DNA of 12,701 nt from a virus. Lineage: Duplodnaviria; Heunggongvirae; Uroviricota; Caudoviricetes. Below are positions 1-12,701 of this stretch, piece after piece. The translations under genes and the position numbers were made by a program. Position 1 is the first letter of the stretch, and each line of letters opens with the position of its first letter. The stretch lies in IMG/VR virus record IMGVR_UViG_2526164599_000005, one strand, 5' to 3'. Below the pieces are notes generated by a model. The model was not told the DNA's origin and made no database searches. It worked only from the letters and a program-made list of their open reading frames with translations.

Positions 1-294
1 CTTTAAGGAGTTCATTTTCCAACGTTTTTTGCCGAGCAGGCGCTGGAGTTCTTTAATCTGCTTCATGGCAGCAGCAAGTTCAGAGGCAGGAACGACCTGC
101 TCTCCTGCGGCCACAGCAGTAAGACTTCCCTCCTGGTATTGCTTGCGCCAGAGAAATAACTGGCTGGCTGCCACACCGTGTTGCCGGGCAACAAGGGAGA
201 CCGTCATTCCCGGTTCAAAACTCTGCTGAACAATAGCGATCTTTTCCTGTGTAGTACGCCGTCTGCGTTTCTCCGGTCCTAAGACATCAATCAT
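1..294 (-). CDS. insC: IS2 transposase OrfA (InsC), 3' end outside window; apparent 1-nt frameshift in the A-run at 25-30
   Basis: Minus-strand translation from ATG (plus 292-294): [90 protein letters not shown]..., matching InsC as I remember it. After GKK the conserved continuation (K)TLENELLK is only in the neighbouring frame. Confidence 0.8.
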
Positions 295-385
295 CTGCTC
301 TCCAATGACTAGTCTAAAAACTAGTATTAAGACTATCACTTATTTAAGTGATATTGGTTGTCTGGAGATTCAGGGGGCCAGTCTA
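1..385 (-). mobile_element. IS2 (IS3 family), partial; left end with terminal inverted repeat, remainder lies beyond the window start
   Basis: Reverse complement of 301-385 reads TAGACTGGCCCCCTGAATCTCCAGACAACCAATATCACTTAAATAAGTGATAGTCTTAATACTAGTTTTTAGACTAGTCATTGGA, which matches my recollection of the IS2 left end; insC follows directly. Terminus placed at 385. Confidence 0.8.
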
Positions 386-560
386 GTCAGCAATGAAATC
401 ACGCAGACCGTCAATAAGAAACTGGAAAACCAGAGTGCGGCAATTCAGCAGATACAGAAGGTTCAGGTTGATACAAATAATAACCTGAACAGCATGTGGG
501 CTGTGAAGCTGCAGCAGATGCAGGACGGACGCCTTTATATCGCGGGTATTGGTGCCGGTA
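386..560 (+). pseudogene. J: Internal fragment of phage host-specificity / central tail fibre gene J, isolated between two IS insertions
   Basis: Open frame VSNEITQTVNKKLENQSAAIQQIQKVQVDTNNNLNSMWAVKLQQMQDGRLYIAGIGAG; joins in frame to 3261-4032 once the IS66-family element and one TSD copy are removed. Confidence 0.65.
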
Positions 561-590
561 GTAAGCGGCTCGTCAGAACCGTATTGATAT

Positions 591-2164
591 TTACTGAGAG
601 CTCAGATCAACTTTCCAGGGCAACAGATCGCGTACCCGGTTTGCCGGCCAGTCCTGGATATGTTCAATGACGTAGCGCAGCCACTTTCTGGTCTCCACCA
701 TTGTTCAGACGGCATGTGCCGATCAGCGAGTACAACACCGCCGCATGTTCACCACCGCTGTCGGAACCCGCGAACATCCAGTTTTTCCGGCCTACGGCCA
801 CTCCCCGTAAGGCGTTCTCTGCGATGTTGTTGTCGATTTCCACCCAGCCATTACTGCAGTACACGTTCAGTGCATCCCACTGTTTCAGCAGGTATGCGAA
901 CGCTTTTGCCGTATCTGAGTGACGCGACAGTGTTTTCATCTGTTGCTGTATCCAGTCATACAGTGACTGCATCAGTGGCGCGGCTCTGGTTTTTCTTGCC
1001 GCCAGACGCTGTTCTGCTGAACAGCCCCGGACCTCTGCCTCGATGGCATACAGTTCACCGATACGCTGCAGGGCTTCCGTGGTGATGTCGGTGGGCGCTC
1101 TTGCATGCACATCGTGGATTTTTTCTCCGGGCATGAGCCATACACGCGGCTTCCGTTATTCTGCCGGATTCGTATAACGCCCGGTAACCACCGTAAGCAT
1201 CGGCCTGAAGCACACCGCTGTAACCGGCCAGGTGATTTTGTGGATGGATACCTTTCCGGTCCGGACTGTACGCGAACCAGACCGCCGGGGGCATCTGTGA
1301 ACCGGCGTTACGGTCATCACGGACGTAGACCCACAGCCGGGCTGTCCGGGTTTTACCGCTGCCCGGCTCCTGGACCGGGACGGGGATATCATCAGCATGG
1401 ACTTTACCGGGCATCAGCACATACTGGCGCAGGACGTCATACAGCGGCTCCAGTAGTTCAGCAACGGCACCTGTCCAGCGCCCCAGTGTGGCACGGCTCA
1501 GCTCCACACCCTGACGGCGGTATATCTCTGACTGGCGGTATAACGGCAGATGGTCTGCATATTTTCCGGTGACGACATGGGCCAGGAGCCCCGCTCCGGC
1601 ATAACTGCGTGCAATGGGTTTTGAAGGTACTGGTGCCTGCACGATATGGTCGCACCGACAACAGGCCAGTTTCGGACGTTGTGTTTCGATAACCTTAAAG
1701 GCGCTGCTGATAAGCTCCAGTTGCTCTGACACATCACATCCCAGAGAACTGAGTTCACCACCACAGGCAGGACAGCATTCCTCTTCCGGCCGGATAACCC
1801 GGGTTTCACGGGGAAGTGAGGCCGGTAACGGTTTACGGGCTGAAGACTGGCGCAGGGCGGATGGCAGTACCGGGTCATATTGCTCACCCAGCGTTTCCGC
1901 CATTTCTTCCTGAAGTGCGCTGATTCGCTCCTGTGCTTCCTGTATCTGCCGTTCGGTTTTTGCACGAAGTTTTTCTGAGCTTTTACCGAACTGCATACGT
2001 TGCAGTTTCGCAACCAGCGCCTTCAGCCGGTTGATTTCGGAAGCATAAGCCGCCACCCGCTGTGAGAGCAGGCGGTTGTATTCAGCCATCTGGCGTATGG
2101 TGTCCTGTTGCGTCTGCAACAGTGCCCGCAGGCGGGCGTTCTCATGAGCAAGTGAGGTGTCCAT
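591..2164 (-). CDS. tnpC: IS66-family transposase TnpC, reading frame broken by two single-nucleotide frameshifts (possibly pseudogene)
   Basis: ORF pieces 1055-2164 ([17 protein letters not shown]...MAHARRK) and 664-1134 (...[29 protein letters not shown]...[46 protein letters not shown]), plus a third-frame tail [35 protein letters not shown] ending at stop 591-593. Frame changes fall at T6 (1119-1124) and near 695-703. Confidence 0.85.
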
Positions 2165-2183
2165 ATCCTCACTTTACAACGGG

Positions 2184-2531
2184 TTATATGCGGATTCCAG
2201 CGCGTTCCGTTCGTTTCGGGTGCTTCCAGTTGATACCTTCAAGAAGCATGGATAACTGAGCCGGAGTAAGGTGCACCTTGCCGTCACGGGTGACTGGCCA
2301 GACGAAGCGGCCCCGCTCCAGGCGTTTGGTGAAGAGGCACAGTCCGTCACTGTCAGCCCACAACACTTTTATCTGGTCACCCCGGCGTCCGCGGAAGATG
2401 AACAGGTGTCCGGAGAACGGGTCATCCTTCAGGACGTTCTGAACTTTTGATGCCAGGCCGTTAAAGCCATTTCGCATATCGGTGATACCTGCAACCAGCC
2501 AGATACGCGAACCTGCAGGGAGAGATATCAT
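2184..2531 (-). CDS. tnpB: IS66-family TnpB (Orf2), intact
   Basis: 115-aa [96 protein letters not shown]... typical IS66 Orf2; its ATG overlaps the tnpA stop (ATGA overlap). Confidence 0.9.
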   Translation of the reverse strand: MISLPAGSRIWLVAGITDMRNGFNGLASKVQNVLKDDPFSGHLFIFRGRRGDQIKVLWADSDGLCLFTKRLERGRFVWPVTRDGKVHLTPAQLSMLLEGINWKHPKRTERAGIRI

Positions 2532-3207
2532 CAGTGGCTGCTCCCTTTTATTTCGCGGATAAGTGTCTGTAATAACGCCGGCGTCAGTTTACCTTTAAGC
2601 CTGAGAGTTCCGGCCGGCAGAACCAGCTCACAACACAGACTGTCGGACGGTGTATTTATCTGCTCTGGTTCCTGTGCGGGGGCCGGGATTTTATTATCCG
2701 GCTCCGGCGTTAACGTCACGGGAAGCAGTGCCGGCATATTTTTCCGGAAGGCAGCAGGCCACCTTTCCGGTATTGATGGCGCCAGTTGAAGAGCAGGTTA
2801 TCGTTGATTCCGTTTTCCCGGGCGATCTGCGCCACACAGGCTCCGGGCTGCAGTGACTGCTCCACTAAGGCGATTTTAAACTCATAAGGGAAGTTGGGCC
2901 GCCGGGGACGTTTTTTTACCACGGGGGCTTCGGATATAACGGTGCTTTCAGGACGTACGACTGGTACCGTGGAAAATTGTCCGTAAAGGCAGGCATCAAG
3001 TTCCTGCTCCGACATGCCTGCGGGCAAAGGCCACGAAAGGCCAGCTCTCCGAAAGCGCACGAACATACTACAAACTGTTGATTTTGGTACACCCAGGCGA
3101 CGCCCGGCCACAACCCGGGGTAAATGTTCTTCAAAGTGAAGACGTAAAGCTTCAGTGATCCAGGTCCGGTGTTTCATACGATAGTGTCCATTAAAAATGA
3201 TGGACAT
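2531..3207 (-). CDS. tnpA: IS66-family TnpA (Orf1) with one apparent frameshift and an unusually long N-terminal extension; start codon uncertain (3207 or 3177)
   Basis: ORF 2716-3207 contains the IS66 Orf1 HTH core [53 protein letters not shown]; ORF 2531-2737 gives the expected C-terminal part [11 protein letters not shown]...[29 protein letters not shown]. They are joined by a frame change at the T5 run 2739-2743. Confidence 0.7.
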
Positions 3208-3260
3208 TATTTTTGTAGAGCCGGAGGAAACAGACCAGACGGTTTAAATGAGCCGGTTAC

Positions 3261-4032
3261 TGCCGGTATTGAGAACACCCCTGACGGCATGCAGAGTCAG
3301 GTGCTGCTGGCGGCGGACAGGATTGCGATGGTTAATCCTGCGAATGGCAACACAAAACCGATGTTTGTTGGTCAGGGCGATCAGATATTCATGAACGACG
3401 TGTTCCTGAAACGCCTGACGGCCCCCACCATTACCAGCGGTGGAAATCCACCGGCATTTTCCCTGACTCCGGACGGAAAGCTGACCGCTAAAAATGCGGA
3501 TATCAGTGGCAGTGTGAATGCGAACGCCGGGACGCTCAACAATGTCACGGTAAATGAAAACTGTACGATTAAGGGCATGCTGGAGGCGACTCAGGTCAGA
3601 GGTGACTTCGTTAAAGCTGTATCCAAATCATTCCCGAAACAGGCTGGTACGTGGGGTAACACGGAAACACCAAACGGGACGGTTACAGTCACCATAAGCG
3701 ATGATCATAACTTTGACCGTCAAATCATTATTCCGCCCATTATCTTTAACGGAATAGCGTATAGCGATCCGGGAAGTGGTAATAACCCGGGAGGTACAAG
3801 ATACACGGGTTATGGTTTTGAAGTTCGCAAAAACGGTGTATTAATCGCATCCAGAGAAACTAAAGGGGCTATTCCCGGTAGCTACAGTGCGGTTATTGAT
3901 ATGCCGAGTGGCAGGGGAAGCGTCACTCTGGAGTTTAAGGTTTTCCATAAAGGCAATCAGTGGGCAGGTAATATCACCGACTGTACGGTGATTGTGACCA
4001 AAAAAGCCGCTTCCGGCATCAGTATTCGTTGA
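3261..4032 (+). pseudogene. J: C-terminal (receptor-binding) fragment of phage host-specificity protein J, severed from its 5' part by the IS insertions
   Basis: [86 protein letters not shown]...[10 protein letters not shown] resembles the lambda J C-terminus as I recall it; position directly upstream of lom fits. Confidence 0.85.
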
Positions 4033-4765: not shown

Positions 4766-7700
4766 ATGGCAGTAAAGATTTCAGGTGTACTGAAAGACGG
4801 CACAGGAAAACCGGTACAGAACTGCACAATCCAGCTGAAAGCAAAACGTAACAGCACCACGGTGGTGGTGAACACGCTGGCCTCAGAAAATCCGGATGAA
4901 GCCGGGCGTTACAGCATGGACGTTGAGTACGGTCAGTACAGCGTTATTCTGTTGGTGGAAGGCTTCCCGCCGTCACATGCCGGGACCATCACCGTGTATG
5001 AAGATTCCCGACCCGGTACGCTGAATGATTTTCTCGGTGCCATGACGGAGGATGATGCCCGTCCGGAGGCACTGCGCCGTTTTGAACTGATGGTGGAAGA
5101 GGTGGCGCGTAACGCGTCCGCAGTGGCACAGAACACGGCAGCCGCGAAGAAGTCAGCCAGTGATGCCAGCACATCTGCCCGTGAGGCGGCAACCCATGCA
5201 ACCGATGCTGCAGGCTCAGCACGTGCCGCCAGCACGTCAGCCGGACAGGCTGCATCATCTGCTCAGTCAGCATCTTCCAGCGCAGGAACGGCATCAACAA
5301 AGGCCAGTGAAGCATCGAAAAGTGCTGCTGCTGCAGAGTCCTCAAAAAGCGCGGCAGCTACCAGTGCCAGTGCCGCGAAAACGTCAGAAACGAATGCGGC
5401 AGCGTCACAAAAATCTGCAGCCACTTCTGCATCCGCCGCGACCACGAAGGCGTCAGAAGCTGCCACCTCAGCCCGGGATGCGGCGGCCTCAAAAGAGGCA
5501 GCGAAATCATCAGAAACGAACGCATCATCAAGCGCCAGTAGTGCAGCTTCCTCGGCAACGGCGGCAGGAAATTCCGCGAAGGCGGCAAAGACGTCTGAGA
5601 CAAACGCTAAGTCTTCTGAGACGGCAGCGGAACAGAGTGCCTCCGCAGCAGCAGACTCAAAAACAGCGGCTGCATCATCTGCCAGCGCCGCGTCAACAAG
5701 TGCCGGGCAGGCCTCAGCCAGTGCCACCGCCGCCGGAAAGTCGGCAGAAAGTGCCGCATCGTCTGCTTCAACAGCCACAACGAAGGCTGGCGAAGCCACT
5801 GAACAGGCCAGCGCAGCAGCGAGTTCTGCTTCCGCAGCGAAGACATCCGAAACGAACGCGAAAGCGTCGGAAACCCGTGCAGAATCCTCAAAAACGGCTG
5901 CCGCATCGTCAGCCAGTTCGGCGGCGTCATCGGCATCATCTGCGTCTGCTTCAAAAGATGAGGCGACCAGACAAGCGTCAGCAGCGAAGAGCAGCGCCAC
6001 GACGGCATCCACGAAGGCGACAGAGGCAGCTGGCAGTGCGACGGCGGCAGCACAGAGCAAAAGTACGGCGGAATCCGCGGCAACGCGCGCCGAGACAGCG
6101 GCAAAACGGGCAGAGGATATTGCATCCGCCGTGGCGCTTGAGGATGCGAGCACGACGAAAAAGGGGGTAGTACAGCTCAGCAGTGCGACCAACAGTACGT
6201 CTGAAACGCTGGCGGCAACGCCAAAGGCAGTAAAATCAGCCTATGACAATGCAGAGAAACGTCTGCAGAAAGACCAGAACGGCGCTGATATACCCGATAA
6301 GGGACACTTCCTGAACAACATTAACGCGGTCAGTAAAACAGACTTTGCTGATAAGCGCGGTATGCGTTATGTGCGGGTTAATGCTCCTGCAGGTGCAACA
6401 TCTGGAAAATATTACCCTGTTGTTGTTATGCGTTCTGCTGGCTCAGTAAGCGAACTGGCATCAAGGGTCATTATCACCACGGCAACGCGAACCGCAGGCG
6501 ATCCGATGAATAACTGCGAGTTTAACGGATTTGTTATGCCTGGTGGCTGGACTGACAGGGGGCGTTATGCTTATGGCATGTTCTGGCAATATCAAAACAA
6601 TGAACGAGCCATCCACTCAATAATGATGAGTAATAAGGGCGATGATTTGCGCTCTGTGTTCTATGTTGATGGCGCTGCTTTCCCTGTTTTTGCGTTTATC
6701 GAAGATGGCCTGTCAATATCCGCACCTGGTGCTGATCTCGTTGTTAATGATACGACCTATAAGTTTGGGGCAACAAATCCGGCGACTGAATGTATCGCGG
6801 CGGACGTTGTCCTTGATTTTAAGAGTGGGCGTGGTTTTTATGAGTCTCATTCGTTAATCGTTAACGATAACTTGTCGTGCAAAAAACTTTTTGCCACAGA
6901 CGAAATTGTAGCGCGTGGTGGTAATCAGATTCGAATGATAGGTGGGGAGTATGGTGCATTATGGCGTAATGATGGCGCTAAAACTTACCTGCTGCTTACC
7001 AATCAAGGTGATGTTTATGGTGGCTGGAATACATTAAGACCGTTTGCTATTGATAACGCAACCGGCGAACTGATTATTGGAACCAAACTGTCCGCAAGTC
7101 TGAACGGTAATGCATTAACAGCAACAAAGCTGCAAACGCCAAGACTGGTTTCTGGTGTTGAGTTTGATGGTTCCAAAGATATTACTTTAACCGCTGCGCA
7201 TGTGGCTGCTTTTGCCAGAAGGGCAACTGATACATATGCCGATGCGGATGGTGGCGTTCCCTGGAATGCCGAATCAGGCGCTTACAATGTCACCCGCTCT
7301 GGCGACAGCTATATTCTGGTTAACTTCTATACCGGAGTCGGAAGTTGCCGGACCCTGCAGATGAAGGCGCATTACAGAAATGGAGGTCTGTTCTACCGTT
7401 CCTCAAGAGATGGCTATGGTTTTGAGGAAGACTGGGCAGAAGTTTATACCTCGAAAAATCTTCCACCAGAAAGCTACCCAGTCGGCGCACCAATCCCGTG
7501 GCCATCAGATACCGTTCCGTCTGGCTATGCCCTGATGCAGGGGCAGACTTTTGACAAATCTGCATACCCGAAACTTGCAGTGGCTTATCCGTCAGGCGTT
7601 ATTCCTGATATGCGTGGCTGGACGATTAAGGGCAAACCTGCCAGTGGTCGTGCCGTATTGTCTCAGGAACAGGACGGCATTAAATCGCACACCCACAGCG

Positions 7701-8745: not shown

Positions 8746-8827
8746 ATTCGTAATGATTACCTAAATACGTTATTCTTTTGCTCAAAAAGTGATTTTGCTA
8801 TAGGTAGAGAGTATGTTCTTGGATTAA

Positions 8828-8861
8828 GAATAAAAAATCGCCATGAAAGAGCTTCATGGCG
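8828..8861 (-). terminator. Candidate rho-independent terminator for a minus-strand transcript converging on tfa
   Basis: Plus strand has 9-bp stem CGCCATGAA (8839-8847), loop AGAGC, TTCATGGCG (8853-8861), preceded by TAAAAAAT (8831-8838); on the minus strand the hairpin is followed by ATTTTTTATTCTT. Confidence 0.45.
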
Positions 8862-9331
8862 AGTACATAAACGGTACAAAATATGATGAAAGTAGAGCGG
8901 CGTAAGCCACTATATTAAGATATGACAATAGCGAAGAAAAGTAAATAACATTTTATGGACGTTTAATTGTTAATTATAAAAACTAGAGTGCCCGATATTG
9001 TTTATCTTGCTTTAAAATAATGTACTCAAACCAAATTTTTGAGCTAAAAGCTCAAATAATATAAATGCAATGATAATGTTTAATAAGACAATTAGCTTGC
9101 TTTGTATTTTCATTTCGGAATACTGTTAAGTAACTTTGATGACCCTAACAATAGATCGGAATTTTCTTAGAGTCAATGGTCACTGTATTTGCTTGCAAAG
9201 CAAATGTTTTGGTGGTTATAAGTTTTCTTAATATAGTCACCTATGCAACTTGTTCCGTGTGGAGATTAAAGGTTAAAATTTAATGCGAAGATGGAATTAT
9301 ATTATATTTTTATAATTAATTTAACCTTAAC

Positions 9332-9432
9332 ATCGTTGCTGGCGGCATGGAAGAAATATCGGGTCTTGCTGATGTCGTGTTGGCACTTCCTTAGTGCCGG
9401 ATATCGAAAGGCCAGCTGTACCTGTGGGGTGA
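9332..9432 (+). repeat. Degenerate direct copy of the tfa 3' end (remnant 1, non-coding scar)
   Basis: ATCGTTGCTGGCGGCATGGAAGAAATATCGGGTCTTGCTGA...CCGGATATCGAAAGGCCAG...GGGGTGA aligns to tfa 8647-8745 (CTCGTTGCTGGAAGCCTGGAAGAAGTATCGGGTGTTGCTGA...CCGGATATTGAATGGCCAG...AGGGTAA). Roughly three-quarters identity by eye, with indels and an internal stop. Confidence 0.7.
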
Positions 9433-9564
9433 AAACTTTATATGGATGCTATTTTTATAATAGCTGGTAAAAACTGGCCGAACTGAAATTCACTGTTGAT
9501 AAAAAAGATGTGTTTGAGTGTATGTCATTGTTTTCTTAATGGAATCCACTAGAATACAGCGAAT

Positions 9565-9762
9565 TTAAGAAGGTGGATTTTTATTGGAATATAAACTACA
9601 ATAATGCTCAACTCGTTCGTAGAATTGTTTTTTCTTATTTCTTGGAATGCTAACTATTATATGCATTATGGGGGCGATACTTCCTGATAATTTACATGAT
9701 GCATACATTGAAGCAATAAATTCAATATCATTGTCATCAAAGTTAAAGCTTTCTCCGTTCAT
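9565..9762 (-). CDS. Hypothetical small protein (65 aa), unrecognised
   Basis: ORF MNGESFNFDDNDIEFIASMYASCKLSGSIAPIMHIIVSIPRNKKKQFYERVEHYCSLYSNKNPPS; minus-strand context TAAGGAATTGAAATG gives an AAGGA Shine-Dalgarno 6 nt before the ATG. AT-rich, so a chance ORF is possible. Confidence 0.3.
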   Translation of the reverse strand: MNGESFNFDDNDIEFIASMYASCKLSGSIAPIMHIIVSIPRNKKKQFYERVEHYCSLYSNKNPPS

Positions 9763-10087
9763 TTCAATTCCTTATGTGTTTGACACAACTGATGCTGTAT
9801 CCCATGAGAATTTATGCAAGTTGTTATGTTTGATTTGATATTGCAATGATAATTGTAGCTAATTGTTTTCAATTGAGTGAAAGTTTATTTCGAGTGATTA
9901 AGTCGAAAAAAAAGATTTCTCACGGTTAGTAAGCGTATTAGGTCAGTATTCAGATATGAATGGTATTAATGACTAAATTTTCAATCATATATGGATTTTT
10001 ATGCTGATGAAGGTGTTTTATTTGGCGATTCGTCAAGCATCTTCACTTAAGTAATCGTATATTTTAAGAGTGCAAAAGAGAAAGGGA

Positions 10088-10190
10088 CAACGTTGCTCGC
10101 ACTCTGGATTAAATATAGGGTATTGTTAAACTTCGTTGATACATAATTGTACCGGATATTGAGTGGTCTGAAGTCCCAGTCATTAAGTAA
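10088..10190 (+). repeat. Second, more diverged and AT-shifted direct copy of the tfa 3' end (remnant 2)
   Basis: ACGTTGCTCGCACTCTGGATTAAATATAGGGTATTGTTAAACTTCGTTGATACATAA...CCGGATATTGAGTGGTCTGAAGTCCCAGTCATTAAGTAA; translation TLLALWIKYRVLLNFVDT* / PDIEWSEVPVIK* parallels tfa [20 protein letters not shown] / [11 protein letters not shown]. Confidence 0.6.
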
Positions 10191-10538
10191 TTGTTTCGTG
10201 ATATGCTGCAGAAACGTTGTATGCAATAACGTTCTGCGGTTGGCTGGTGAACTTTCGATAGTGCGGGTATTGAATGATTTCCAGCCGTTACCGATTTTAT
10301 ATAACTGCAGTGGAATTATTCAACACACAGGCAAAACGGAATAAGCTGAGAAAAAAGCGTGCTTTCCCAATCTGGGGCAAATCACTTCTGAATGACACCT
10401 GAAAACAGGTGGTGGACTCAAGAAGGCTTGGAATATTCTTCTTTAATGTTATGTAATTCATTGATTTTTCGTGTACGATTTTAAGACATTTATTCCAAGA
10501 AAAATTTTTAACTCTTTGATTTTTCGACTCTGTATCAT

Positions 10539-10600
10539 CGGTCTCGAAAACCGGAGTAGGGGCAACTCTACCGGGGGTTCAAATCCCCCTCTCTCCGCCA
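10539..10600 (+). other. 3' fragment (about 62 nt, anticodon stem to CCA) of tRNA-Ser(CGA); attR-type core repeat, not a functional tRNA
   Basis: CGGTCTCGAAAACCGGAGTAGGGGCAACTCTACCGGGGGTTCAAATCCCCCTCTCTCCGCCA matches the 3' part of E. coli serU as I recall it (anticodon loop CTCGAAA, long variable arm, T-arm GGGGGTTCAAATCCCCC). No complementary 5' acceptor strand upstream. Confidence 0.75.
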
Positions 10601-11184
10601 CTTTATCAATGACTTATCTCCCGACTTCCCGCCTTGCTTTTCCTAAACAGAACAATCGTAGAATATTCTTGAAGGGTTAGATCGTCACTGTTTTCTGTTC
10701 GATACTGTGACATTCAGCACTTGATTCACTATGGATCTGACAGGAAGGTTTTGAGCGAAAATTTGCAGTTATTCAGTCGTTTTCTTATCGGTCACCATTA
10801 TTCTTTTAGACATTGATCCTACAAAGCTGCCGCAAAGTTGGTGGTGGGAACTGAAGTTGCGTAGAGAAGGGGTCAATACCCGGAGGCAAACATGGGCTGG
10901 CAAAAGTGTAGCGGTATTAGGCGCAGCTATTTAGCCTAGTTATGTTTTATGAAAACTTGATATCATATAAGTGTCTTACTTATTGGCTGTAAATAAGTTT
11001 TTCCTAAGGAATTGTTTCTTGAGTATCATTTGTAACTGTAACGGAATTTATAATCCTTTGCTTTATTGTTACGGTATTTTTTATCACACCCTATTTTTTA
11101 TGTGGTTTTTTATACTGAAGTTTGGCAAAGTGAACTTTATATGCATATACTTCATCCTGGTTTCAGTTAAGTTGGGTGGATGAT

Positions 11185-11928
11185 ATGGCAACTACATGTT
11201 CAGTTATATTGATTTTGGAGTCCTTTGATGTTTATTTCGGAAAAGAGAGTGTGTTTCTAGAGAAAGGTTCATCTGTACTTGTCGACTCTAGCTCTAGAGA
11301 TTTTTTCCTGACATATCCTGAAAGAGTGATAGTGGCGGATTTTGGCGCTGAGTTTATTAGTCGCTATTTGAAAGCTAATAACTTAAGGGATATTTCTGAT
11401 TGTAGGGAATATCCATCTTATTTAAAAATAAACTTTGCTGACTTCAGTTTAATTAAAGGATTAATTAGTTGGGCTAATCACTGTGCTGAATACATAGAAA
11501 TTTTTGATGAGTCTATTGCTTTTACATGTCTCTCTGCATTTTCTTCTGAAAAACAATTTGGAGTATTTCTGTTTGAATGTTTGAAAAGCACAGAGGCTAA
11601 AGTTAAAACGATTATTCATACGGATTTATCTGCACCATGGCGTCTTAAGGATATATCATCAAGATTATATCTCAGCGAAAGTTTACTAAAGAGGAAATTG
11701 AAAGAAGAGGGGGTATCATTCAGTAAGATCATACTTGATGAGAGGATGCAAATGGCTGAATATTTACTCAGCACTCGTTGTTATCCTATTAGTAAAGTAG
11801 CTAAGGTCTGTGGTTATGCCAGTGTCTCATACTTTACTTATGTATTTAGACGTTATTTTGGTGTTTCTCCAAGTCAATACTCTCAGAGGAGTTCAGAAAG
11901 TAAAATTCTTACTCACCAGGGAATCTGA
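11185..11928 (+). CDS. AraC/XylS-family transcriptional regulator, YdeO/AppY/EnvY-like (horizontally acquired type); 247 aa from ATG 11185 (ORF track starts at GTG 11176)
   Basis: C-terminal dual-HTH region WRLKDISSRLYLSESLLKRKLKEEGVSFSKIILDERMQMAEYLLSTRCYPISKVAKVCGYASVSYFTYVFRRYFGVSPSQY resembles YdeO/AppY as I recall them; N-terminus TCSVILILESFD resembles their CSV(V/I)FI motif; GGTGGA SD-like sequence 4 nt upstream; very AT-rich. Confidence 0.85.
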   Translation: MATTCSVILILESFDVYFGKESVFLEKGSSVLVDSSSRDFFLTYPERVIVADFGAEFISRYLKANNLRDISDCREYPSYLKINFADFSLIKGLISWANHCAEYIEIFDESIAFTCLSAFSSEKQFGVFLFECLKSTEAKVKTIIHTDLSAPWRLKDISSRLYLSESLLKRKLKEEGVSFSKIILDERMQMAEYLLSTRCYPISKVAKVCGYASVSYFTYVFRRYFGVSPSQYSQRSSESKILTHQGI

Positions 11929-12422
11929 TCATTGTTCTTGCCCCCTTATTTCCAGACAGGGGGTGTATCTTAAGTTAACGTTACCCGCTGACGTCGATAT
12001 TCTCGCGGAGAGCGATAACCCAACGCACTGTGCGGATGGTTTTCATTGTAATGATCGATCGCCACTGCAAGATTATGCAATGCCGTTCTTACATTCGGTT
12101 TCGGCATGAACGCGATGTAGTCTTCCTTCATCGTTTTCACGAACCTTTCTGCCATTCCATTACTCTGAGGACTGCTGATTGCCGTTGTGCAGGGCTCCAG
12201 ATTCAACTCTCTGGCGAACTGCCATGTTTCATGCGCTCTATACGCTGAACCGTTATCTGTCAGCCACTGGATGGACTGTTCCGGTACTTTATCGCCAAAG
12301 CGTTTTTCTATCGCTCCTAACATGACATCCTGCACTGTCGCTTTATCGTAACCTCCCGTGCTTGCGGCCCAGTCTATGGCTTCACGATCGCAACAGTCCA
12401 GGGCGAACGTAACACGCAGTTT
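11929..12422 (-). mobile_element. Remnant of an IS2-like element (right end plus 3' part of insD), 5'-truncated by another IS
   Basis: 11929-11975 resembles the IS2 right terminal region (…TTGCCCCC…ATTTCCAGACA…CTTAAG…CCCGCTG…); contains the insD-like C-terminal ORF. Terminus is within about 5 nt of the regulator stop codon. Confidence 0.7.
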
Positions 12423-12437
12423 TGAATCGCCACGGGT
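11970..12437 (-). pseudogene. IS2-like transposase OrfB (InsD-like, integrase core), C-terminal fragment only
   Basis: Minus-strand translation ...[108 protein letters not shown]...[14 protein letters not shown] parallels IS2 InsD (...[42 protein letters not shown]...). An upstream in-frame stop at 12438-12440 shows the N-terminal two-thirds are missing. Confidence 0.75.
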
Positions 12438-12701
12438 TTAACAGACACCTCAGAGTCATTTAAGATGGCTTAAAGAGAGGTGCCCATGAGCGGTAAGCGT
12501 TATCCCGAAGAGTTTAAAACTGAAGCAGTCAAACAGGTTGTTGATCGCGGTTATTCTGTTGCCAGCGTTGCAACACGTCTCGATATCACCACCCACAGCC
12601 TTTATGCCTGGATAAAGAAGTACGGTCCGGATTACTCCACTTTTTCATCAAGCCAATCCGCCCACCACTGCATCATTTCTCTGCGCTTATCGAGATACTG
12701 A
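12423..12701 (+). mobile_element. Left end of a different IS3-family element (terminal TGA..., then orfA); extent to the right uncertain
   Basis: Begins TGAATCGCCACGGGTTTAACAGACACCTCAGAG exactly where insD-like homology stops; followed by an SD (AGAGAGG) and an IS3-type OrfA. Confidence 0.5.
12486..12701 (+). CDS. IS3-family transposase OrfA (HTH), probably truncated or disrupted after about residue 50
   Basis: MSGKRYPEEFKTEAVKQVVDRGYSVASVATRLDITTHSLYAWIKKYGPD is a typical IS3-family OrfA N-terminus; the following residues (YSTFSSSQSAHHCIISLRLSRY*) lack the usual leucine-zipper character. Confidence 0.6.
   Translation: MSGKRYPEEFKTEAVKQVVDRGYSVASVATRLDITTHSLYAWIKKYGPDYSTFSSSQSAHHCIISLRLSRY

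Follow-up and report, generated by a model that had tools for sequence, protein, structure and literature searches.

The window, i.e., the whole stretch of DNA of 12,701 nucleotides that was analysed here, covers the initial 12.7 kb of a contig from the draft genome of E. coli DEC13D, its sequence being that of AIHI01000009.1 counted from position 2 of that record. The host of the insertion studied here is a lambda-like prophage in this strain, and the target gene is J, of which two fragments lie in the window in the company of two insertion sequences (Table 1). The first insertion sequence is an IS2-like element that interrupts J at codon ~854. The second, 175 bp further downstream, is an element of the IS66 family with the gene order tnpA-tnpB-tnpC, which reads antisense to J. 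It is noted that the contig terminus falls inside the IS2-like copy, 560 bp from the second element, with an N near that terminus.

Table 1. Features of the interrupted J gene and of the two insertion sequences, with positions in the window
Feature	Positions	Strand	Basis
End of IS2-like element (IS3 family), truncated by contig end	1..385	-	94% identity with the strain 12A IS2; terminus exactly at 385
J fragment between IS2-like element and ISCro1, ~codons 854-912 of 1165-aa J	386..560	+	PF09327 profile 1-40; alignment to J of strain 19KM2326N
Left target-site duplication (TSD) copy, 8 bp, TGCCGGTA	553..560		read directly
Full-length ISCro1 (IS66 family)	561..3260	-	100% coverage, 99.8% identity to copies annotated ISCro1
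Terminal inverted repeat, tnpC end (IRR), GTAAGCGGCTCGTCAGAACCGT	561..582	+	17/22 vs opposite end; 10/11 in terminal 11 nt
tnpC C-terminal part, 156-codon ORF	664..1134	-	PF03050 profile 159-283; NF033517 positions 233-373
tnpC (DDE transposase), N-terminal 369 codons	1055..2164	-	PF13007, PF13005, PF03050 profile 1-166 of 284; NF033517 profile 5-234 of 387
tnpB (IS66 Orf2 accessory protein), 115 aa, intact	2184..2531	-	PF05717 4.7e-40; NF033819 5.2e-38
Rest of tnpA, 68-codon ORF, shifted frame	2531..2737	-	beyond 1-nt deletion
tnpA, N-terminal 163 codons	2716..3207	-	NF038385 IS66_access_TnpA 2.1e-66, profile 1-139 of 190; PF01527
Terminal inverted repeat, tnpA end (IRL), reverse complement = GTAACCGGCTCATTTAAACCGT	3239..3260	-	inverted-repeat comparison
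Right TSD copy, 8 bp, TGCCGGTA	3261..3268		read directly
Distal J fragment, ~codons 910-1165, receptor-binding C-terminal domain and stop	3261..4032	+	PF09327 profile 40-138; PF12421 Ig_GpJ_C 7.7e-27

The initial annotation expected an IS66-family, IS679-like match over the full length of the second element, and a match to the IS66 family is present from end to end, with 99.8% identity over 2700 of 2700 nt to copies that are named ISCro1. It should be mentioned that this name rests on the RefSeq annotation of the matching copies. Of the 5,426 complete genomes, 1,493 contain 80% or more of its length. Relative to the commonest copy (L001/L002), the copy in the window has five single-base indels and zero substitutions, and because the five indels sum to a net +1 its length is 2700 bp rather than the canonical 2699 bp, the latter being also the published length of ISCro1, for which an 8-bp TSD is given (PMC12115866). 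Thus, the window copy shares with the named ISCro1 the termini, the gene order and the 8-bp TSD, and it differs from the named element in having one extra nucleotide and in having tnpA and tnpC frameshifted as recorded, the frameshifts being probably errors.

ISCro1 was first named in Citrobacter rodentium ICC168. A related element, IS679 on plasmid pB171 of EPEC B171, which Han et al. are said to have described in 2001, is reportedly also a member of the IS66 family with a length of ~2.7 kb and an 8-bp TSD, and all of its three genes, tnpA/B/C, are reportedly required for transposition. In the genome of C. rodentium ICC168, 24 copies of ISCro1 have been counted, with ISCro1 and IS679 given as separate elements (PMC3072379), and RefSeq calls the copies that match the window ISCro1, not IS679. 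A relative with ~94% identity, covering 85% of the length, is present in E. coli. ISEc8, an IS66-family element of E. coli O157:H7, is clearly a different element, with ~71% DNA identity in the transposase genes over ~870 nt and with 32% of the query aligning.

The element starts at position 561 with GTAAGCGGCTC... and ends at position 3260 with ...GAGCCGGTTAC. Its two ends form imperfect terminal inverted repeats that both begin with GTAA (GTAAGCGGCTC... versus GTAACCGGCTC..., 17/22 identical), so that both the extent of 561-3260 and the GTAA-initiated repeats claimed in the initial annotation are borne out. Starts with GTAA are said, reportedly by Gourbeyre et al. in 2010, to be typical of the IS66 family. 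A longer inverted repeat, 555-582/3239-3266, which extends 6 nt past the ends of the element, was also considered and was rejected as a part of it, because independent copies cease matching exactly at GTAA/TTAC; the overrun of 6 nt arises from the CCGG palindrome within the TSD.

Between these ends, ORFs match the IS66-family profiles of all three proteins, TnpA, TnpB and the transposase, as would be expected from the claimed tnpA-tnpB-tnpC content. As in the IS66 family, tnpA is the first gene, codes for an HTH protein and overlaps tnpB, and tnpB, whose DNA has no difference from that of the canonical copy, is located directly upstream of tnpC. Note that the tnpB of IS66 here has no relation to the TnpB nucleases of IS200/IS605. 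The IS66-type transposase domains (LZ, zinc-finger, DDE_Tnp_IS66) are all matched, spread over the two tnpC ORFs. The 369-codon part of tnpC, whose product is exactly EHX67063.1 of E. coli DEC13D, stops just past an extra T in the run at ~1114-1119 (T6 versus T5 in the canonical copy), and three indels at 684-698 alter the end of the 156-codon ORF, while the canonical TnpC has 523 aa with the PF13817 C-terminal domain. The tnpA gene is cut short at ~2734-2738, where a T5 run is present here and a T6 run in the canonical copy, the canonical TnpA having 225 aa. The initial annotation called the element complete; this is true of both ends and of the presence of all three genes, but single-base indels break the recorded frames of both tnpC and tnpA.

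The intact 8-bp duplication reported at the two ends is exact, with TGCCGGTA on both sides and no further occurrence on the two strands of the window, and the probability that one 8-mer abuts both ends by chance is ~1.5e-5. That an 8-bp duplication is a trait of the IS66 family, as had been asserted, agrees with the published data (PMC6778807, PMC12115866) and is also seen at four independent copies elsewhere, which have the same termini and their own different 8-bp TSDs (GATACATC, TTTGTTGA, CATGAACA and GAATGACA). The first 8 nt of the distal J fragment, i.e., the right TSD, are the same as the last 8 nt of the fragment 386-560. When the element and one copy of the repeat are removed in silico, an open frame of 312 codons results, and the rejoined J aligns over 939/939 nt in one ungapped alignment, with 99.9% identity, to annotated gpJ of other E. 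coli, at least 80% of it being covered in 1,178 genomes. At the protein level, 299 of the 312 residues are identical to residues 854-1165 of the 1165-aa J of strain 19KM2326N. The Phage_Tail_Tip domain (PF09327), which is cut at profile position 40, and the Ig_GpJ_C domain that follows it become contiguous upon the excision. The claimed restoration of the J frame is therefore confirmed.

Based on these data, we consider it highly probable that the known element ISCro1 transposed into J at codon ~912, recently and with no later rearrangement, that J is now cut twice, and that the recorded indels are likely errors. From what is known of DDE transposases and of the IS66 family, TnpC together with the accessory proteins TnpA and TnpB would cut the target TGCCGGTA with an 8-bp stagger, the GTAA...TTAC ends would then be joined to the staggered cuts, and the 8 bp would be doubled by gap repair. 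The insertion splits the Phage_Tail_Tip domain and cuts off the receptor-binding C-terminus from the remainder of J. The description of the insertion as fairly recent is supported by the zero substitutions relative to the commonest copy and with the junction being found in 0 of the 5,426 complete genomes in the E. coli junction search. As for the consequence for J, it holds true that the gene is cut and its receptor-binding C-terminus detached, but ISCro1 is not the sole lesion. The IS2-like element is a second, independent interruption, and therefore the loss of J cannot be assigned to ISCro1 alone; since J is cut twice, the prophage is unable to form a normal tail tip.

Now we consider the origin of the five indels. 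Three of them (684, 1119 and 2738) alter the length of T-runs, 4-6 long; the remaining two (692 and 698) are single-base insertions not in such runs. Assemblies of the DEC collection reportedly used 454 data. The additional T at 1119 is present in 0 of 2,300 complete-genome records and the cluster of indels at 684-698 in 0 of 2,473. Since four of the five indels are thus present in no complete-genome copy among thousands, an error of assembly in the repeat is the likeliest origin, and from the sequence comparison we take the five indels to be, in all likelihood, mistakes in the consensus of a repeat that the draft assembly contains in multiple copies. If this is the case, the real copy is predicted to be probably intact and active.

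The other scenario is that the indels are real too. The ISCro1 copy would then be a decayed pseudo-element with tnpA and tnpC inactivated, being mobile only if other copies supply TnpA and TnpC in trans. This scenario, which we regard as unlikely, takes the record as it stands, with tnpC of 369 + 156 aa and tnpA of 163 + 68 aa, and it is consistent with the T6-to-T5 change of tnpA being known from 12 of 1,924 complete-genome records and with the absence of host selection on IS copies. However, indels make up about one tenth of the spontaneous mutations in E. coli, and it is very unlikely that natural decay would give five indels and zero substitutions in a copy that in all other respects equals the commonest, active-looking one, with four of the five being absent from all of at least 2,300 records. 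Moreover, the indels occur only in the repeat. In the same window the four unique genes, lom, stf (1134 aa), tfa and an AraC-family gene, amounting to ~5.3 kb of coding sequence, are unbroken, while with the indel rate of the IS applied to this length ~10 frameshifts would be expected and none is seen. The apparent pseudogenisation of tnpA and tnpC is not to be taken as biology, because its site is a repeat within a draft assembly.

For the indel in tnpA there is one further point. As the T5 form recurs in complete genomes and in drafts, where other assemblies show the −1 variant on four or more distinct sequence backgrounds of ISCro1, the A6/T6 run at ~2734-2738 could be a real slippage hotspot. 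If so, slippage would toggle TnpA between its 225-aa version and a shorter one of 163 aa having only the HTH, which would tune transposition. We give this idea little credence, and recurrent homopolymer miscalling explains the recurrence at least as well.

It is also conceivable that the locus itself is a misassembly, with a collapsed repeat having been placed by the draft assembler between two fragments of J. The source is a draft whose contig terminus is inside an IS close by, and repeats are frequently misplaced in drafts. By contrast, both junctions here are located exactly at the ISCro1 termini, and the flanks belong to one gene, in which they abut without a base missing and share a perfect 8-bp duplication, whereas with flanks taken from two different copies the 8-mers would be unrelated and J would not be contiguous; what such a misjoin looks like is illustrated by another copy (L011, GCA_000355155.2), which has no TSD. 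A misassembly is thus highly improbable. Least probable of all is that the 8-bp repeat arose by chance or was left behind by recombination, the element having come by homologous recombination between IS copies, a process that ISCro1 copies do mediate (PMC12115866), because inter-copy recombination yields non-matching flanks (PMC6778807), while here the flanks agree at 8/8 positions, excision restores J exactly, and the rejoined sequence with a single TGCCGGTA aligns without gaps to the intact gene.

Returning to the recent transposition of ISCro1 into J, the element is already known and the insertion is a private one. When the same insertion was looked for in other genomes, the best long matches proved to be ISCro1 at other sites of the tail region: in isolate DCE7 the element is in J but 498 bp downstream of the present site, in ES5 it is between J and lom, and in 19KM2326N and 12A it is in the tail-fibre gene. 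Each of these insertions used another target site and arose independently, with the DEC13D junction in none of them. A hotspot in J or a preferred orientation, which might be read from these cases, was rejected because the search joins same-strand pieces only and the sample is biased.

Finally, we note that the finding is right but ordinary, with low novelty. It has little consequence beyond annotation, where the doubly interrupted J marks the prophage as unable to yield infectious particles whose tail tip is normal, and it adds one more case of the inactivation of prophages by the build-up of insertion sequences, a pattern that has already been reported for the genomes of C. rodentium and EHEC O157 (PMC3072379).

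The element at 561-3260 is a copy of ISCro1. Its 2700 nt align from end to end, with 99.8% identity, to copies whose RefSeq annotation reads 'IS66-like element ISCro1 family transposase', alongside tnpA and tnpB, and its ORFs match IS66 family models: the TnpC ORFs match Pfam PF13007, PF13005 and PF03050, the TnpB ORF matches PF05717, the TnpA ORF matches PF01527, and NF033517, NF033819 and NF038385 are matched as well. The IS66-family assignment made in the initial annotation is thus borne out. By contrast, identity to ISEc8 is just ~71%, and a third of the length aligns. At 2699 bp, the canonical copy encodes TnpA of 225 aa, TnpB of 115 aa and TnpC of 523 aa, and ISCro1 has been published as a 2699-bp element with an 8-bp target-site duplication (PMC12115866). 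In the window its genes occupy the minus strand and run antisense to J.

The bases read at both junctions, together with the comparison of the ends, agree with the coordinates, inverted repeats and 8-bp duplication that had been proposed. The left junction (553-561) reads ...GGTATTGG TGCCGGTA / GTAAGCGGCTCGTCAG... and the right one (3260-3268) reads ...AATGAGCCGGTTAC / TGCCGGTA TTGAGAAC..., with no further TGCCGGTA site in the window beyond the two flanking copies. The terminal inverted repeats, both initiated by GTAA, are identical at 10/11 and 17/22 positions, and four independent ISCro1 copies share exactly the same first and last bases, each being flanked by an 8-bp duplication of its own (GATACATC, TTTGTTGA, CATGAACA and GAATGACA). 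A different situation is seen in the 2698-bp copy of GCA_000355155.2 (AQFG01000028.1), where the 8-bp flanks differ (CCACCTCT versus CGGCCTTT); it exemplifies a recombined or misassembled copy, with which the window copy contrasts.

When 386-560 is joined in silico to 3269-4032, an open frame of 312 codons results, which aligns over 939/939 nt, ungapped and with 99.9% identity, to the annotated gpJ of strain 214-4 and others, as expected from the claim that excision restores a continuous J. Against a 1165-aa J it covers residues 854-1165, with 299/312 identical. From the rejoined frame, these alignments and the division of the domains between the two fragments (see the table), it follows that the IS entered J at codon ~912 and that exactly 8 bp were duplicated.

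Features of the window: domains, indels relative to the canonical ISCro1 copy, and neighbouring genes
Feature	Coordinates	Strand	Remark
IS2-like element end	1-385	-	94% identical to IS2 of strain 12A; ends exactly at 385
Left J fragment			Phage_Tail_Tip profile positions 1-40 (Pfam)
Right J fragment			Phage_Tail_Tip profile positions 40-138 and Ig_GpJ_C receptor-binding domain (Pfam)
-T	~684		changes T-run length
+T	692		outside T-runs, clustered with 684
+C	698		outside T-runs, clustered with 684
+T	1119		in T-run
-T	2738		in T-run
Tail-fibre gene, 1134 aa	4760-8164	+	long Ala/Ser/Thr-rich repetitive middle
AraC-family regulator	11176-11928		after ~2.4-kb ORF-poor stretch
IS3-family integrase-core remnant	11970-12335	-	

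It had also been argued that the prophage cannot build a normal tail tip. That reasoning is sound, but ISCro1 is not the sole cut, because the IS2-like element also interrupts J, at codon ~854, leaving only 175 nt of J between the two elements. Upstream of this codon the contig stops, short of the first 853 codons. Note also that a candidate ORF of 287 codons (3169-4032, +) has a GTG start inside the tnpA-proximal end of ISCro1 and continues in frame past the inverted repeat, taking in the distal J fragment and its receptor-binding domain; the exact predicted protein is absent from a collection of 15 billion proteins.

Escherichia coli DEC13D has a protein, EHX67063.1, that is identical to the 369-aa product of the ORF at 1055-2164 (-); it is encoded on contig AIHI01000009.1 of assembly GCA_000250375.2. 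From position 2 on this contig is identical to the window except for an N at window position 22, and thus the window corresponds to the opening 12.7 kb of a draft contig that terminates within the IS2-like sequence.

Relative to the canonical copy, the window copy has no substitution and five single-base indels, which split tnpC into 369 + 156 codons, breaking the DDE domain at profile position ~160, and tnpA into 163 + 68 codons. The element described as complete is therefore so in structure but not in its recorded reading frames. Most likely, the five indels are assembly errors. Five indels with zero substitutions are unlike natural decay; three of the five (684, 1119 and 2738) alter the length of a T-run; they occur only in a multi-copy repeat, on a draft contig ending in another IS, while lom, the tail-fibre gene, tfa and the AraC-family gene are intact in the same window; and the +T at 1119 and the 684-698 cluster are present in 0/2,300 and 0/2,473 complete-genome records, respectively. 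The exception to this absence is the tnpA frameshift from T6 to T5 (A6 to A5, window ~2734-2738), found in 12/1,924 complete-genome records. It also recurs in one Logan contig and five further draft assemblies, on several ISCro1 backgrounds that differ by 4-17 substitutions. Repeated miscalling of a homopolymer and a genuine slippage hotspot would both account for this recurrence.

The zero substitutions, the intact duplication and the lack of the window's J/ISCro1 junction in any of the 5,426 complete genomes are consistent with a recent, lineage-private insertion and support the earlier view of it as fairly recent. Based on knowledge of DDE transposases and of the IS66 family, the target would be cleaved with an 8-bp stagger, the IS ends would be joined to the cleaved target, and gap repair would produce the duplication. 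According to Han et al. (2001), TnpA and TnpB are reportedly required along with TnpC. The feature is an ordinary, already known one: the insertion is private, and the IS itself is well known and very common, at least 80% of it being found in 1,493 of the 5,426 complete E. coli genomes, at up to 34 places per genome.

ISCro1 has also inserted independently at other sites of lambdoid tail regions: DCE7 has a copy in J, 498 bp downstream; in ES5 one lies between J and lom; and 19KM2326N and 12A each carry one in the tail-fibre gene. Such insertions agree with the published observation that mobile elements, prophages among them, are where IS elements concentrate (PMC3072379). Since the search joins pieces in a way that biases this sample, no conclusion on a hotspot is drawn. 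In strain 12A, IS2 is nested within the ISCro1 copy, with 4035 bp between the termini and the duplication CATGAACA intact.

In the remainder of the window, the low complexity of the tail-fibre gene gives rise to long spurious ORFs, in other frames as well as on the opposite strand, at 5160-6170 (+) and 5263-6192 (-), and no ORF of at least 90 aa occurs in the ~2.4 kb after tfa (within 8746-12701). Strain 214-4, the closest complete relative, has the same J-lom-stf-tfa-AraC region, and there the block 8746-12701 is followed by ybhB-bioA.
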